From: Nannocystis pusilla
GTDB lineage: Bacteria > Myxococcota_A > Polyangia > Nannocystales > Nannocystaceae
Length of the DNA stretch: 64,000 nt
Direction: 5' to 3' (one strand)
Assembly (NCBI RefSeq): GCF_049060185.1
Contig: NZ_JBMEQO010000002.1
The notes under the pieces are model-generated. The model did no database searches. It worked only from the letters and a program-made list of their open reading frames with translations, and was not told where the DNA came from. Position 1 is the stretch's first letter, and every line of letters starts with the position of its first letter. The position numbers and the translations under genes are program-made. This document shows, piece by piece, positions 4,290 through 60,992 of this stretch.

Positions 4290-5516
4290 TTAGACATGCG
4301 TTGAGGGCCATGTCGCCGCCAGCGCGACCTGTCGCTGACATGTCTCTTCGGACATCCTTCGCCCGATCTCGAGACATGTCCCTTCGGACACGTCAATCGC
4401 CGCGCCCGGCGCGGCCGAGGAAGAAGCCGGCGACGCCCCGGTCACGCCCCACGAGGTCGCGCGCGGGATCTCGGGGATCGCGGTCTCCAGCCGCTGCCAG
4501 TTCACCGCCGCGAACACGCGCAGGTGCTGCAACAGCACCCAGTTCACGCCGGCCGACGTCGCGGTGATGCCGTTGCCGACCACGTCGCGGGCGCCGACGC
4601 GGAAGCGCTCGAAGCGGGCCGACAGCTCGACCGCGCTGTCGCGCACGCGGCGGCTCGCCAGCCGCGGCAGCAGCGTCGCCGGGTCCTTGTCCTGGCCCGT
4701 CACCACCGCGCCGACCTGGGCGTAGCCGCCGGCGCCGATCAGCTGGGGCAGCGGGTCGCCCGGCGTGAACGGGTCGCCGTCGGTGTCGCGCTCGCGCGAG
4801 TCGTAGGTGTAGAAGAACTCGCCGCGGGCCGAGAGGAAGCGCCAGAACAGCCCGCCGCCGGCCGTGAAGCGGCGCGACGCGCCCGTGCTCGGCAGGCCGT
4901 GGAAGAAGTCGAAGGCGAACGCGGTGGTCACCGTCGGCGTGAAGCCGTTGGTCTTGTGGTAGGCGAACACCGACGCCACCAGCAGGAGCTGCGGGCCGCG
5001 CTGCAGGAACGCCAGCGGGCTGAGCTGCACCTTGCCGGCGAACGCGATCTTGGTGTTGTTGGCCTCGCGGTTCTGGCCGATGCCGGAGAACACCGCGGCG
5101 GTGACCTCGGCCCAGCGCCAGAAGTCGTAGGCCACCTCGAGCCCGACCTGCCGCCCGGGCGTGGCCGCAAGCATCGACAGCGGCGCGCGCGGCAGCTCGT
5201 CGACCAGGTCGGGCGCGTTGAAGCGCAGGCCGAACGGGGCCTTGAACTGGCCGGCGCGCAGCCGCAGCCGCGGCGCCGCGGCCCAGGCGATGAACGCGTC
5301 GAACAGCTGCGGCCCCTTGGCCTGCGCCGCCTCGATCGTCACGAACGCAGTGACCGGCCCGATCTGGACCCCGCCGCCGATCCGCGCCCCCGCCAGGCTG
5401 ATGTTGCTGTAGCCCTCGCGCGGCGCCGAGTACCAGGTCGCGTCGGTGCGGATCCACCCGTACGGGAAGAACTGGAACCGCTCGCGCAGCGGCGGCTTGG
5501 ATGTCCCCAAGGGCAT
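4290..5516 (-). CDS. Porin-like outer-membrane beta-barrel protein (phosphate-selective porin O/P-like). Both ends run into palindromic repeat elements and no signal peptide is visible, so it may be disrupted.
   Basis: LRLRAGQFKAPFGLRFNAPD and alternating beta-strand-like segments. The 5' part of ORF 4290..6728 is an Arg-rich artefact. Confidence 0.4.
   Translation of the reverse strand: MPLGTSKPPLRERFQFFPYGWIRTDATWYSAPREGYSNISLAGARIGGGVQIGPVTAFVTIEAAQAKGPQLFDAFIAWAAAPRLRLRAGQFKAPFGLRFNAPDLVDELPRAPLSMLAATPGRQVGLEVAYDFWRWAEVTAAVFSGIGQNREANNTKIAFAGKVQLSPLAFLQRGPQLLLVASVFAYHKTNGFTPTVTTAFAFDFFHGLPSTGASRRFTAGGGLFWRFLSARGEFFYTYDSRERDTDGDPFTPGDPLPQLIGAGGYAQVGAVVTGQDKDPATLLPRLASRRVRDSAVELSARFERFRVGARDVVGNGITATSAGVNWVLLQHLRVFAAVNWQRLETAIPEIPRATSWGVTGASPASSSAAPGAAIDVSEGTCLEIGRRMSEETCQRQVALAATWPSTHV
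4292..4393. repeat. Cluster of GGACATGTCC-type palindromic elements (three units, two with cTTCGg spacers).
   Basis: agacatgcgttgagggccatgtcgc; gacctgtcgctgacatgtctcTTCGgacatcc; gagacatgtcccTTCGgacacgtc. Confidence 0.7.
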
Positions 5517-5782
5517 GTCCTTAGAGACATCCCGAGCGGGGCGCCCGTCGGCGCGACAGGACCCGCCGGGACCGCGCCGCCGGGTTCGGCGCCGCTCGTC
5601 CCCTGGCCCGCCGCCGATGGGGTCTTGACGACAGGTTCCAAAGGACCTGTCGCATCGGGCATGTCCTCTCGACCATTGTCGCCGCCCTCGCGGCTCTCGG
5701 GTACCGGGACGCTGGTGATCTCGTCGGCAGGCGCGGCCCACAGGGCCGCGCCGAGGATGAAGGTCGTCGGATCCACGGGCGC

Positions 5783-6771
5783 TCAACAGGCCGGCAGGAC
5801 CACGATCTGCTGGGAGTCGCGGGCGGACACGAAGATCCGGCTGACGCCGTCGAACGCGATCCCACGCGGCTCCCAGTCGCCCTCCGCGACCGTCGAGATC
5901 GCCCCGTCCCCGGTCACGCGGTAGACGCGGCCGGTGCTGTTGGCGGTGTCGTACGACAGCACCAGCAGGGCCCCGTCGGGCGTCGTCTCCATCAAGTCGA
6001 GCGACTCGAACTCGTCCGACACCAGAGTCAACGCCGGCGCCGCCGCCTTCAGGTCGAGTTTGAATAACTGCCGCTGCGACTGGTCGCCGACGAACAGAGT
6101 GTCGCCGATCACCGCGATCCCGACCGGCTTGCTGAGGCCGCCGACGATCATCGTCTCGACGCCGGCGACCGGGTCGACGCTGGCGATCCAGCCGGTGTAC
6201 ACGTCGTCGGCGTCGCGCGAGTAGGTGGCCACGTAGAGCAGCCCCCGCGCGTCGTCGTAGTCGAGGCCGACGCGGCGCCACTCGTCGTTGACGCCCGCGA
6301 GCGCCTCTGCAGCCCCGTCGGGCCCGACGCGGAAGAGCGCCCCCAGCCCGGGCATCCCGAAGCCGAAGCGCGGCAGGTAGAGCGAGCCGTCGGCGGCGAA
6401 GTCGAGGTCGCCGAGGCCGTCGGAGCCGGGATCGCCGGAGGGTTCGGGATCTCCGCGAACACCTCCGTCGTCCCGTCCTCGTCGCGCACCAGCACGCGGT
6501 TGTTGTCGTCGTCGGCGATGTACAGCTTCTGCTCGTCGACGCGGTAGTAGAGCCCGTTGGGCTCGGCCTGCACGTCGATGCGGTAGGTCGGGAACGTCTC
6601 GCACTGCGCCGGCGCCCCGGTCGTCCCGTCCGTCGTCGTCGGCGCGTCGGCAGTCGCCTCGCTCGCGGTCCCGGTCGCCTCCGTGCCCGTCGCGCTCTCG
6701 GTCGCAGTCGTCGCGGCCTGCGGCACACAGGCCGCCAGCGCCGCAGTCATCGTCCACACGCGTGTCTTCAT
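5783..6771 (-). CDS. Lipoprotein with a beta-propeller (SMP-30/NHL-like) domain; apparent frameshift near 6445.
   Basis: Signal MKTRVWTMTAALAACVPQA plus a Thr-rich linker in frame of ORF 6148..7404. It continues in the frame of ORF 5783..6757 (GLLYVATYSRDADDVYTGWIASVDPVAG... LFVGDQSQRQLFKLDL). Confidence 0.5.
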
Positions 6772-6785
6772 GAGCTGCTCCAAGG

Positions 6786-59395: not shown

Positions 59396-59600
59396 GCGAC
59401 CTGTCCCGAGCGCCATGTCGGTGCGAGCGCCGCGAGGCCGCGGCCCGCCGCTCCCTCCGCACCGCGGCGACCTGTCCCGAGCGCCATGTCGGTGCGAGCG
59501 CCGCGAGGCCGCGGCCCGCCGCTCCTCCCGCACCGCGGTGACCTGTCCCGAGGGCCATGTCCGTGCGAGCGCCGCGAGGCCGCGGCCGGCCCGCGAAGGG
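59396..59600. repeat. Three tandem copies of a roughly 70-bp unit, each containing a GACCTGTCCCGAGCGCCATGTCGG palindromic element, in the 5' region of the histidine kinase gene.
   Basis: gcgacctgtcccgagcgccatgtcggtgcgagcgccgcgaggccgcggcccgccgctccctccgcaccgcg x3 (the third copy is diverged). Confidence 0.7.
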
Positions 59601-59954
59601 GCTCCGGCGGGAGGAGAGCACGCGCTCGGCTGTCGGCCGCGGGTCGGGCACGCAGCCGCAAGCGTAGCGCCGGGTCGCGCGGGCGCAGCCCGGGCCTCCG
59701 GCCGGGTGGCTCGGCCGGGCGCAAACGCGGCCGCCGGGGCCCGGCCGCGCGTCACTCCGGCGGGTGCGCGGCGCGTCACGCTCGCACGCAGTCGGACGGC
59801 GGACCCGCGAGTCGGAAGCCCCGCGGCGTGAAGTTGCGCCGCCGACCGGCCGAGCCCGGCGCCCGCGGGCCGGGCCCTCGCAAGCCACGAACGCGGGCAC
59901 GACCCGGCGGATGCGGTCGTCCTCGGCCGCGCGTGCACCGAGACCTCGCGCGCG

Positions 59955-60135
59955 CCGCTCAGGCGCGGCAGCTCGGCAGTCCTCCGGGACTGCCCCGCAC
60001 CGCTCAGCGCAGAAGCCGGCAGTCTTCCAGGACTGCCCGCGCACCGCTCAGGCGCGGAAGCTCGGCAGTCCTCCGGGCAGGCCTCGCACGCGCCGCTCAG
60101 GCGCGAAGCTCAGCAGTCCTTCGGGACAGGTGATG
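59955..60135. repeat. Array of four roughly 44-bp units, each with a perfect hairpin GGCAGTCC-TCCG-GGACTGCC, at the 3' end of the T6SS effector operon.
   Basis: ...gctcaggcgcggcagctcGGCAGTCCtccgGGACTGCCccgcac... repeated four times with small changes. Confidence 0.6.
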
Positions 60136-60992
60136 TGCCACCCCATGTCGCCGAGGAACTCGCGCCGCTCGGCGGCGGTGCAGGTCGGCACGAACGCTCG
60201 CAGCACCCGCGGGTCGTAGAAGCGGAAGTAGACCTTCTCGCGGTCGAGCTCGACCATGAGGAACTTGCGCAGGTGGCGGCGCACGGCCTCGAACTCGCGG
60301 CCGTCGGGCACCGACAGGAAGATCGCCCAGCCACCGTCGCCGTCGCGCCGGGCGTCGTCGGTGTGCCAGCCCTCGACCACCAGATCGCCCAGCAGCTCCG
60401 GGTGCGGCGGCCCGAGCTCGACCAGGTACGGCGCGGTCTCGGCGATCGCGTCGCCCTGCCAGCCGTCGAACAGCGAGCGGTGGCGGGCCGGCGACTCGCG
60501 CAGGAGCACGCGCACCCGATCGTCGCGCGACGCGTCGGCGACCGCGAACAGCCGGCCCGGCAGCGCCCGTAGGGCCGCGATCGCCGGCGCGGCCGCGGCC
60601 ACCATCTCCGGCGTCGGCGGCGGATCGGGCCGCGTGTGGCGCTCGATCGCCAGCGCCAGGTCGGACGCGCCGGCGCGCACCCAGCCGCCGTGGCCGCTCC
60701 TGCCCTCGCGCATCGGCTGTCCGTCGAGACATGTCCGTTCGGTCACCAGCGCCTGCACCGCCGCGACCCGTCCGTCCCACTCGATCTGCAGGTGGATCGG
60801 CGCCAGCGCCCCGTCGTGCGCCAGGCACAGGCCGGCCGCCGCGTCGCGCCCGACCGTGATCGCCCCGCCCGCGGCGAGCACCGCCTTCTTGCCCTGCTCC
60901 GGCCCCCACAGCACCTCGACGACCAGCCGCGGCGCGGGTCCACCGGGGCCGGGCGGTCCGTCGTGAGAACTCGTGGCAGGGCTCGCGCTCAT
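60048..60992 (-). CDS. T6SS effector adaptor/chaperone: N-terminal FHA-like domain fused to a DUF4123 domain. The 3' end reads into the hairpin array; the true stop may be near 60110.
   Basis: FHA-like LVVEVLWGPEQGKKAVLAAGGAITVGRDAAAGLCLAHDGALAPIHLQIEWDG; DUF4123 LFAVADASRDDRVRVLLRESPARHRSLFDGWQGDAIAETAPYLVELGPP...WAIFLSVPDGREFEAVRRHLRKFLMVELDREKVYFRFYDPRVLRAFVP. The start ATG overlaps an upstream stop (ATGA). Confidence 0.6.
   Translation of the reverse strand: MSASPATSSHDGPPGPGGPAPRLVVEVLWGPEQGKKAVLAAGGAITVGRDAAAGLCLAHDGALAPIHLQIEWDGRVAAVQALVTERTCLDGQPMREGRSGHGGWVRAGASDLALAIERHTRPDPPPTPEMVAAAAPAIAALRALPGRLFAVADASRDDRVRVLLRESPARHRSLFDGWQGDAIAETAPYLVELGPPHPELLGDLVVEGWHTDDARRDGDGGWAIFLSVPDGREFEAVRRHLRKFLMVELDREKVYFRFYDPRVLRAFVPTCTAAERREFLGDMGWHITCPEGLLSFAPERRVRGLPGGLPSFRA

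Follow-up and report, generated by a model that had tools for sequence, protein, structure and literature searches.

A REP-like family of phased palindromic repeats at Nannocystis gene ends, probably acting as RNA stem-loops

The 64-kb stretch of Nannocystis DNA analysed here (the window) carries 24 elements of one palindromic repeat family when strict criteria are applied, among them copies close to stop codons as well as copies upstream of asnB and of a histidine-kinase gene (Table 1). The decamer GGACATGTCC occurs three times exactly (0.04 expected) and 29 times with at most one mismatch (1.67 expected, maximum of 6 in 100 shuffles), which is far above chance level and confirms the palindrome family described in a first-pass annotation of this DNA. 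The coordinates listed there are correct. Decamers with no more than one mismatch are present in 16 of the 20 regions, whereas 8019-8042, 8281-8330, 33890-33925 and 54000-54340 contain only more degenerate copies, and the hairpin given as an example, GGACATGGCC-TTCG-GGCCATGTCC at 28588-28611, is exact. That the elements occupy most intergenic regions was too strong a statement: of the 46 window spacers that measure 40 nt or more, 14 contain a copy with no more than one mismatch. Copies inside ORFs were likewise overstated, being due to chance or to native coding sequence, as at 22163-22184, which encodes the conserved AsnB peptide RWYERTWLEGQ.

Table 1. Palindromic elements in the window. Folds are given as free energy in kcal/mol and z-score.
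Position	Strand	Element	Context and conservation	Fold
4292..4395	-	degenerate multi-unit array; units 4306, 4336, 4372, 4386 and others	spacer of two minus-strand genes; non-coding by coding-potential track	-33.3, z = -3.8 (minus-strand RNA)
5499..5532	-	full unit between two half units, ATGTCC-ccaa-GGGCATGTCC-ttag-AGACAT		
5629..5666	-	3-unit array	minus-strand genes on both sides	-16.9, z = -2.1
8019..8040	.	degenerate 2-unit element, ggcTGTCC-tttc-GGGCATGTCG		
18697..18748	+	units at 18697, 18725, 18739	convergent spacer; begins 6 nt past plus-strand gene's stop	
22844..22865	.	2-unit element	divergent spacer, about 100 nt upstream of asnB start; among the rare 5'-side copies	
24586..24609	+	2-unit element	convergent spacer, 34 nt past stop codon	
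27615..27638	+	2-unit hairpin	7 nt past stop at 27607	-21.1
28512..28535	+	perfect decamer pair GGACATGTCC-ctgc-GGACATGTCC; stem runs on into flanks	11 nt past stop at 28500; kept in place in N. bainbridge	-23.1, z = -3.2
28588..28611	+	perfect 10-12 bp hairpin, UUCG loop, then TTTT	100% conserved in N. bainbridge, sequence downstream diverged	-25.8, z = -4.6
33885..33920	.	degenerate 3-unit element		
42478..42533	+	4-unit array	begins at first base past stop codon (42475-42477)	
42572..42622	+	second cluster; perfect decamer at 42586	same spacer as 42478..42533; reaches next gene's start region	
45492..45515	.	2-unit element	divergent spacer	-11.9, z = -0.4 (weak)
46896..46987	+	two 2-unit elements, 46896-46917 and 46964-46987	downstream of stop at 46868	
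47837..47916	+	5-6 unit array	convergent spacer, directly past TAA stop; orthologous arrays in four other species	-27.9, z = -4.4
51516..51567	+	4-unit array, one long nested hairpin	convergent spacer; orthologous arrays in four other species	-41.3, z = -3.4
54022..54335	.	four scattered degenerate hairpins, type ATGTCY-N4-RGACAT		
58142..58207	+	5-unit array, TRF period 14	fills convergent spacer, 12 nt past one stop and 6 nt off other gene's end; orthologous site has 5-6 units in N. exedens, RBIL2 and N. pusilla (last spacers and units recognisably orthologous in the latter two), more degenerate in N. punicea	-36.3, z = -3.0
59230..59316	-	two hairpins, 59230-59253 and 59293-59316	5'-leader copy, 35-120 nt upstream of histidine-kinase start; conserved across five species	
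59392..59591	.	71-bp tandem repeat, 2.8 copies, 95% identity	one 2-unit element per copy	

The decamer does not stand alone but is part of a larger architecture. The basic module is the inverted repeat (CA)TGTCC-N4-GGACA(TG), and adjoining modules generate decamers around the palindromic core GACATGTC in a fixed 14-nt register, giving arrays of two to six units. The distance between units is exactly 14 nt in 145 cases, 28 nt in 15 and 42 nt in seven, with most other distances represented by one to four cases. The inverted repeat GTCC-N4-GGAC is found 208 times (about 40 expected; other gap lengths, 9-28) which makes it more frequent than the decamer form (123). The sequence of the 4-nt spacers varies widely, and the UUCG loop that had been described as frequent belongs to a minority, TTCG or CGAA being present in 12 of the 159 pairs with deviations. 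Neighbouring units have same-position variants in common (+3.7 SD), pointing to tandem growth, and the 71-bp repeat with one element per copy shows that local tandem duplication multiplies the elements. The composition of the element at 5499-5532 shows that the inner halves, i.e. the junction hairpins, are the retained parts.

The family is almost only found in Nannocystis/Nannocystaceae. When 185,579 species genomes were scanned, 98 of the 103 stretches with the two-unit pattern came from Nannocystis/Nannocystaceae or from Myxococcales MAGs, and its density in six cultured species is 0.25-0.58 per kb as compared to about 0.026 by chance (seed matches excluded). GACATGTC and ACATGTCC belong to the most strongly enriched 8-mers of non-coding DNA in 8/8 genomes (the six cultured species and two MAGs), with the exception that in MAG EsbW ACATGTCC alone appears among them. 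Thus, the family is genome-wide and genus-wide, in contrast to the chance-level frequency or restriction to one region that the first-pass annotation had named as arguments against it. The motif is absent from the outgroup myxobacterial loci examined, where the equivalent convergent spacers contain ordinary, individually different GC hairpins.

Multi-unit arrays are non-coding in 134 of 141 cases (95%), non-coding DNA making up 31% of the bases. Instead of being spread over 5' and 3' ends, as proposed earlier, they show a strong 3'-end bias, with a median distance of 32 nt (n=295) to the flanking gene 3' end and of 277 nt (n=100) to the gene 5' end, gene positions in the pooled loci stemming from our own codon-usage caller, of which the stops are reliable and the starts are not. 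Arrays are present in 86 of 126 convergent spacers (68%) and in 38 of 133 co-directional spacers of at least 200 nt, as compared to 0/91 divergent spacers below 350 nt and 0/104 co-directional spacers below 40 nt; the pooled loci were picked for one perfect pair, and these seeds, masked where important, are included in the spacer-class counts. By independent professional gene calls for four genomes every convergent spacer has an array (15/15 by eye). Exceptions are a small number of conserved copies in 5' leaders or in divergent spacers (at 22844, 45492 and 59230).

Three convergent spacers carry arrays in each of five species, and the spacer at 28.5 kb also has one in N. bainbridge. Between orthologous arrays, pairwise identity reaches 0.92 in the CATG core and 0.75 at the outer unit positions, compared with 0.56 in the spacers and 0.62 in the flanks, and no presence/absence polymorphism was seen at orthologous sites in the five species (70-90% protein identity).

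Several observations concern pairing. The strong array folds have z-scores between -3 and -4.6. Complementarity between adjacent units (7.84) exceeds that of random unit pairs (7.57 ± 0.05; reached in 0/2000 shuffles), and there are 25 double changes with Watson-Crick compensation where 16.8 ± 3.6 would be expected. In co-directional spacers G.U is more frequent than A.C on the sense strand (52:18 pairs, 13:4 arrays; 17:6 arrays with metagenome loci added), and in convergent spacers the better fold is that of the sense strand in 76 arrays and that of the antisense strand in 47. Handling non-independence leaves the strand evidence weak (strict pooled per-array sign test 24:13, p = 0.10; energy test 49:38, p = 0.11), which keeps a DNA-level role in consideration and makes the case for RNA rather than DNA as the acting form only suggestive.

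The reading that we prefer, at a probability of roughly 60%, is that the repeats are a Nannocystis-specific, REP-like family of gene-end RNA stem-loops that terminate transcription or protect transcript 3' ends. RNA would be the active form, and the putative effect would be termination or 3'-end protection. Upon transcription of the upstream gene the array would fold, a few nucleotides downstream of the stop codon, into a single long hairpin or into several. The transcription unit would end there, through termination favoured by the structure and/or through a block to 3'-to-5' exonucleases that would fix and protect the transcript 3' end. As the units are palindromic, one array could serve both convergent genes. 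Arrays may lengthen and shorten through tandem duplication of 14 nt (or more) and would be passed on vertically, maintained by selection. Besides the weak strand evidence, observations against gene-end RNA hairpins are that pairing alone is insufficient for 92% identity in the CATG core and that a few conserved copies exist in 5' leaders or divergent spacers. The extra constraint on the core hints at a sequence-specific, dedicated factor.

Like intrinsic and bidirectional terminators, the repeats are GC-rich hairpins a few to tens of nucleotides past the stop and enriched between convergent genes, and the generic hairpins of outgroup myxobacteria match them in location. With its T-run, the member at 28586-28613 qualifies as a textbook terminator, and no other family member in the window doubles as a canonical intrinsic terminator. 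In contrast to terminators, however, all copies have a common sequence, its core more conserved than pairing requires, and they form phased multi-hairpin arrays. Since a T-rich tract follows only 8-9% of the arrays, leaving about 91% without a U-tract, most misfit the canonical intrinsic-terminator model.

The repeats might instead act as DNA, by phased binding of a nucleoid, topology or roadblock protein that absorbs supercoiling or blocks read-through between convergent transcription units; candidates are, among others, gyrase, an IHF-like protein or a dimeric HTH protein dedicated to TGTCC-N4-GGACA. The half-sites of this motif measure 5 bp and are spaced by about one helical turn, as is typical of dimeric operators, a single consensus is maintained genus-wide, E. 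coli REP/BIME elements are known targets of gyrase and IHF, and both the CATG core kept beyond pairing needs and the marginal strand asymmetry agree with such a role. Nevertheless, we consider it unlikely, as compensatory double changes and excess inter-unit complementarity are unexpected for protein half-sites, and as the G.U excess in co-directional spacers, the stems reaching into non-consensus flanks (A-rich upstream, T-rich downstream) and the generic hairpins at equivalent places in relatives also speak against it.

It is rather improbable that the repeats are selfish REP- or MITE-like DNA, functionless for the host, mobilised by a RAYT-type or other transposase and tolerated downstream of genes. 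Such an origin would fit one short palindrome in thousands of copies in one genus and none in relatives, its confinement to places where insertions are harmless, and the local duplication seen in the 71-bp repeat. Yet arrays are kept at orthologous sites without visible presence/absence polymorphism, their core is far better conserved than flanking spacer DNA, and short divergent spacers, equally non-coding, have none. Neither a terminal inverted repeat nor a target duplication was found for the arrays, no conserved GTAG/CGTC head adjoins the palindrome, and a RAYT homolog was not found in 1.07 Mb of Nannocystis DNA, a low-power test.

The earlier likening to REP/BIME elements (E. coli, Pseudomonas, Stenotrophomonas SMAG) holds as a functional analogy: both are short imperfect palindromes, strictly extragenic, in hundreds to thousands of copies, clustered, with a lineage-specific consensus, at gene 3' ends and predicted to form RNA hairpins. 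REPs close to stop codons protect upstream mRNA and modulate termination or translation. The likeness ends at the structure, as a REP measures about 35 nt whereas the Nannocystis module has a 14-nt period and 5-10 bp stems, and BIMEs alternate in orientation with variable linkers whereas the arrays run head-to-tail in fixed register with 4-nt spacers. Also, short intra-operon spacers, where E. coli REPs are common, are free of arrays. With neither a conserved GTAG/CGTC head nor, in the low-power search of 1.07 Mb, a RAYT homolog to place the repeats among REPs proper, we call the family REP-like only.

Operators of a global transcription factor controlling the flanking genes, the other possibility raised in the first-pass annotation, would account for palindromy, high copy number, conserved consensus and the few conserved 5'-leader copies; the distribution comes close to refuting them, with arrays lacking in short divergent spacers, which contain promoters, far nearer to stops than to gene starts and concentrated in convergent spacers, which are promoter-free, and the compensatory changes at paired positions disfavour them too. 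A DNA uptake sequence accumulating as inverted pairs in terminators is the least credible origin, as exact copies are a small minority (3/29 in the window), coding-region copies are near chance level, and uptake bias does not account for palindromy and 14-nt phasing. Neisseria DUS and Haemophilus USS pairs are comparable in being genus-specific 10-12-mers at about 0.5 per kb (0.3-0.6 per kb for the Nannocystis 10-mer) that often form hairpins downstream of genes; however, DUS/USS are non-palindromic, mostly exact and frequent inside genes, none of which applies to the Nannocystis repeat. The cyanobacterial highly iterated palindrome HIP1 (GCGATCGC) is another short palindrome hugely over-represented in one lineage, but it occurs in coding and non-coding DNA alike and, unlike the Nannocystis family, does not form phased arrays at gene ends.

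The self-complementary decamer GGACATGTCC, the core of the repeat, occurs three times in exact form in the window, where 0.04 copies are expected, and 29 times with up to one mismatch, compared with an expectation of 1.67 and a maximum of six in 100 dinucleotide-preserving shuffles. The window has a G+C content of ~72% and a negative GC skew throughout. The family of dispersed palindromes claimed in the first-pass annotation is thus real in its essentials, and strict criteria yielded 24 elements; the site coordinates listed there were correct as well, except that four of the regions hold degenerate copies only. 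The annotation was silent on the register of the repeat: from one decamer to the next the distance is exactly 14 nt. Of the decamer spacings in 849 kb of Nannocystis DNA, 145 are of 14 nt, 15 of 28 nt and seven of 42 nt, most other distances being represented by one to four cases only. Arrays, i.e. decamer units in the 14-nt register, comprise one to six units, two being most common.

The junction GTCC-N4-GGAC was observed in 208 cases (~40 being expected, and gaps of other sizes giving 9-28), more often than GGAC-N2-GTCC (123 cases), and the information content drops with distance from this junction, indicating that the basic module is the inverted repeat (CA)TGTCC-N4-GGACA(TG), with decamers arising where modules abut. 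The outer halves of terminal units are prone to decay. The 4-nt spacers are not conserved, and TTCG/CGAA, although the most frequent of many, accounts for 12 of 159, so that only a minority of hairpins carry the C(UUCG)G loop, which is not the frequent trait it had been taken for. In the spacers of junction hairpins from the pooled loci, each oriented by its own GC skew, C outnumbers G by 661 to 436, a skew of about -0.2 that is far stronger than in bulk sequence and may result from mutational skew at unconstrained loop positions. A replication-strand bias of the loops, considered since the window spacers are TTC-rich on the plus strand (12 vs 4), was dropped as the pooled loci oriented by GC skew gave 49 vs 38 (p = 0.28). 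The main arrays fold stably as RNA (z from -3 to -4.6) and are flanked by weak A-rich triplets upstream and weak T-rich triplets downstream.

The two-unit pattern GGACATGTCC-N4-GGACATGTCC was scanned in 185,579 species, represented by one genome each, and was found in 103 stretches, 98 of which belong to Nannocystis, Nannocystaceae or Myxococcales MAGs. Three further loci, from a Gammaproteobacteria MAG (L014), Diplocloster agilis (L020) and a Terriglobales MAG (L081), contain one exact match each and no further enrichment of the repeat; these matches are probably chance or unrelated palindromes. With the seed, the perfect pair by which each locus had been chosen, masked, decamer density is 0.25-0.58 per kb in all six cultured Nannocystis species as compared to ~0.026 by chance, and the repeat thus extends well beyond one region. 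Equally with masked seeds, GACATGTC and ACATGTCC are among the top over-represented non-coding 8-mers in every genome tested (40-150-fold, motif-free count). At 97-98% AsnB identity, Nannocystis sp. ILAH1/RBIL2 and N. pusilla come closest to the window. In three loci of related myxobacteria (AsnB 67-80% identical, 70-76% G+C) the motif is at chance level only, and their convergent spacers carry ordinary GC hairpins, each of its own sequence. Among the matches listed in a metagenome scan for CATGTCC-N4-GGACATG, most came from unrelated organisms and at least ~10 were Nannocystis-like loci, which contributed at least eight informative arrays. A search of the whole window against Rfam at the gathering threshold returned two tRNA matches only, the repeat matching no curated family, and we found no published description of it in the full-text literature. 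Other words are also strongly over-represented in non-coding DNA, namely CGAATCGA/ACGAATCG in N. exedens loci (L024, L046, L064 and others) and ATCGATCG/GATCGATC/ATCTTCGA in loci of MAG BC1.173 (L026, L028 and others), and may represent additional repeat families.

Relative to genes, the arrays are strongly biased toward 3' ends and convergent spacers. Genes were called with a lineage-trained codon-usage model and a frame-agnostic coding track, used because of frame disruptions in the window and cross-checked on professionally called loci. Multi-unit arrays are non-coding in 134 of 141 cases (95%), non-coding DNA making up 31% of bases. The median distance from an array to a flanking gene is 32 nt for 3' ends (mode 0-20 nt, n = 295) and 277 nt for 5' ends (n = 100), our own gene calls in the pooled loci being reliable for stops and unreliable for starts. 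A multi-unit array was present in 86 of 126 convergent spacers of at least 40 nt and in 0 of 91 divergent spacers under 350 nt, and in co-directional spacers the proportion was 0/104 below 40 nt, 5/68 at 40-130 nt and 38/133 at 200 nt or more; these counts include unmasked seeds from loci chosen for one perfect pair, the contrast between classes still being valid. Independent support came from four unselected syntenic loci with professional gene calls, where arrays occupy every convergent spacer and no short intra-operon or divergent one. This distribution is that expected of a signal at the end of transcription units, contrary to an operator. Some gene ends carry other signals, and the copies reported inside ORFs do not belong to the pattern, as single in-gene copies are near chance level and the one in asnB is native coding sequence, so that insertion into ORFs was rejected.

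The same three convergent spacers are occupied in the window, N. exedens, RBIL2, N. pusilla and N. punicea, the array in the spacer at 28.5 kb is shared with N. bainbridge, and the two hairpins in the 5' leader of the histidine kinase are kept in all five species. Orthologous arrays vary in unit number, spacers and variants, their last units being recognisably orthologous. Pairwise identity in the alignments is 0.92 for the CATG core at the centre of the decamer, 0.75 for outer unit positions, 0.56 for the spacers and 0.62 for surrounding spacer DNA. No presence/absence polymorphism of arrays was seen at the orthologous loci compared, indicating that arrays are old, vertically inherited and selectively maintained. 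Local growth of arrays by tandem duplication is apparent at the sequence level; adjacent units share same-position variants more often than random pairs (+3.7 SD), and the spacer upstream of the histidine kinase holds a 71-bp tandem repeat (2.8 copies, 95% identity), each copy consisting of one two-unit element and GC-rich sequence.

The complementarity of adjacent units is 7.84, compared with 7.57 ± 0.05 for random unit pairs (reached in 0 of 2000 shuffles), and 25 Watson-Crick-compensated double changes occur at paired positions against 16.8 ± 3.6 (reached in 95 of 5000 shuffles). This excess is better explained by a nucleic acid that folds than by protein half-sites changing independently. 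On the sense strand of co-directional spacers G.U exceeds A.C mismatches by 52:18 per pair (p = 6e-5), a count inflated by duplicated variant units that were counted repeatedly and are not independent; per array the ratio is 13:4 (p = 0.049), or 17:6 with extra metagenome loci. Pooling with a strict convergent subset gave 24:13 (p = 0.10), and sense and antisense folding energies differed significantly in the convergent set only, the difference in the strict pooled set being not significant. As the per-array result is marginal and the energy tests are mixed, action of the arrays at the RNA level is no more than suggested.

The reading we favour, with a probability of about 60%, is that the arrays are gene-end stem-loops peculiar to this genus and act in a REP-like or bidirectional-terminator-like manner. 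The arrays would end or delimit transcripts and protect transcript 3' ends, and one array would serve both genes of a convergent pair. With the tests for RNA-level action graded as they are, we concede a real if minor chance to a site acting in the DNA, as a structural element or roadblock.

The likeness to REP/BIME elements proposed in the first-pass annotation holds for behaviour, as both are short and imperfect palindromes that reach high copy numbers and keep to extragenic DNA. It does not extend to structure, as the GTAG or CGTC tetranucleotide head found beside REP palindromes is absent from the array flank profiles, and whereas BIMEs are REPs of alternating orientation with defined linker motifs, the arrays run head-to-tail with a fixed period and unconserved spacers. 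REPs also go with a cognate RAYT gene, coding for a Y1 HUH transposase, that the repeats flank; a tblastn search with E. coli RayT, which was of low power, revealed no homologue (best E 0.5) in 1.07 Mb of Nannocystis-like sequence, only a minor part of several genomes of 11-13 Mb each. MITEs are defined elements of ~50-500 bp that are bordered by terminal inverted repeats and target-site duplications and vary in presence or absence, whereas the arrays have no bounded ends, differ in unit number and have stayed at the same sites in five species. Purely selfish REP/MITE-like DNA is distinctly unlikely given this conservation in place and the total avoidance of divergent spacers. Like intrinsic terminators, the arrays place a stable GC-rich hairpin soon after the stop codon, but ~91% of them lack a U-tract (at least four T within 8 nt downstream in 8-9% of arrays only); canonical terminators are scarce in the window, and the sole sequence that qualifies strongly as one in 40 kb scanned is itself a member of the family. 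The alternative of sites for a global DNA-binding protein, taken as operators of a transcription factor, has become very improbable, as operators lie in promoter regions and the arrays are missing from short divergent spacers and lie far from gene starts. A DNA uptake sequence is hardly tenable, as DUS/USS are mostly exact and abundant in coding DNA whereas the window contains three exact and 26 one-mismatch copies, those in coding DNA being near chance level or native codons, and, unlike both DUS/USS and HIP1, the repeat is palindromic, phased and degenerate and is kept out of coding DNA.

As gene-end stem-loops the arrays are unusual in their strict 14-nt phasing and their near-universal use at convergent spacers. 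In addition, their core sequence is identical across the genus and conserved beyond the needs of pairing, which implies either a sequence-specific partner or a mechanism of copy correction or dispersal. It is conceivable, though rather unlikely, that transcription-unit ends are marked by a sequence-specific, factor-dependent signal, a dedicated protein on the CAUG/CATG-core duplex (RNA hairpin or DNA) bringing about bidirectional termination or insulation. Bacteria would then have their own counterpart of roadblock or mTERF-type termination or, alternatively, a new factor that binds hairpins for termination or at 3' ends, having evolved in a single genus in place of generic terminator hairpins. 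To our knowledge, there has been little work on how transcripts end in high-GC bacteria that have few U-tract terminators, and practically none in myxobacteria. Nannocystis, with one short sequence at nearly every convergent pair, and its close relatives, with individual hairpins, form a natural contrast in which this question can be tested comparatively. The CATG core, with its extra conservation, hints at a factor that recognises it, for which the decamer duplex (GGACAUGUCC-N4-GGACAUGUCC as RNA hairpin) is a possible bait. The motif also marks the genus strongly enough to help in binning metagenomic Nannocystis DNA, and is a ready predictor of operon ends in the annotation of these large, natural-product-rich genomes; the arrays are likely to yield portable parts, terminators or stabilisers, for myxobacterial engineering.

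Table. Coordinates of arrays, genes and other features in the window
Feature	Position	Strand	Remark
Terminal units	5499-5532		decayed outer half
Terminal units	8019-8040		decayed outer half
Gene end	after 9917		ordinary GC hairpin with TTTT
asnB	21131-22752	-	frame split near 21410
Decamer copy in asnB	22163-22184		native coding sequence
Phased decamers	28512/28526		14-nt register
Predicted canonical terminator	28586-28613		family member
Vault-protein-like gene (predicted)	30566-33439	+	957 aa
tRNA match	33514-33579	+	Rfam only, 51.9 bits, model positions 4-67
Region without array	35610-36304		
tRNA-Leu(CAA)	37518-37588	+	Rfam, confirmed by ARAGORN
Ser/Thr kinase ORF	40252-42477	+	loses frame
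Phased decamers	42478/92/506/20		14-nt register
Array	51505-51580		RNA fold of -41 kcal/mol
Phased decamers	58142/56/70/84/98		14-nt register
71-bp tandem repeat	59392-59591		upstream of histidine kinase
DUF4123/PAAR/VgrG cluster	60048-64000	-	stretch syntenic with a type VI secretion-type cluster

Several other features of the window were noted. Compared with a Nannocystis ortholog of 98% identity, asnB falls into two frames through the loss of one A from an A-run (caaaag to caaag), a change that resembles an assembly indel more than a biological one. In the Ser/Thr kinase ORF a motif is read from a different frame, with negative coding potential over ~600 nt, so that it is either a pseudogene or affected by further indel errors. 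Pfam matches comprise DUF4215, DUF4388 and a vault-like domain, a set suggestive of a myxobacterium, and the product of the predicted bacterial vault-protein-like gene matches the major vault protein shoulder domain together with a vault repeat domain. The second tRNA match was not confirmed by ARAGORN and may be a truncated or degenerate tRNA. The stretch at 60048-64000 is syntenic with a DUF4123/PAAR/VgrG cluster of RBIL2, N. pusilla and N. punicea that is missing at the equivalent position in N. exedens, indicating that the island beside the histidine kinase was apparently inserted or lost.
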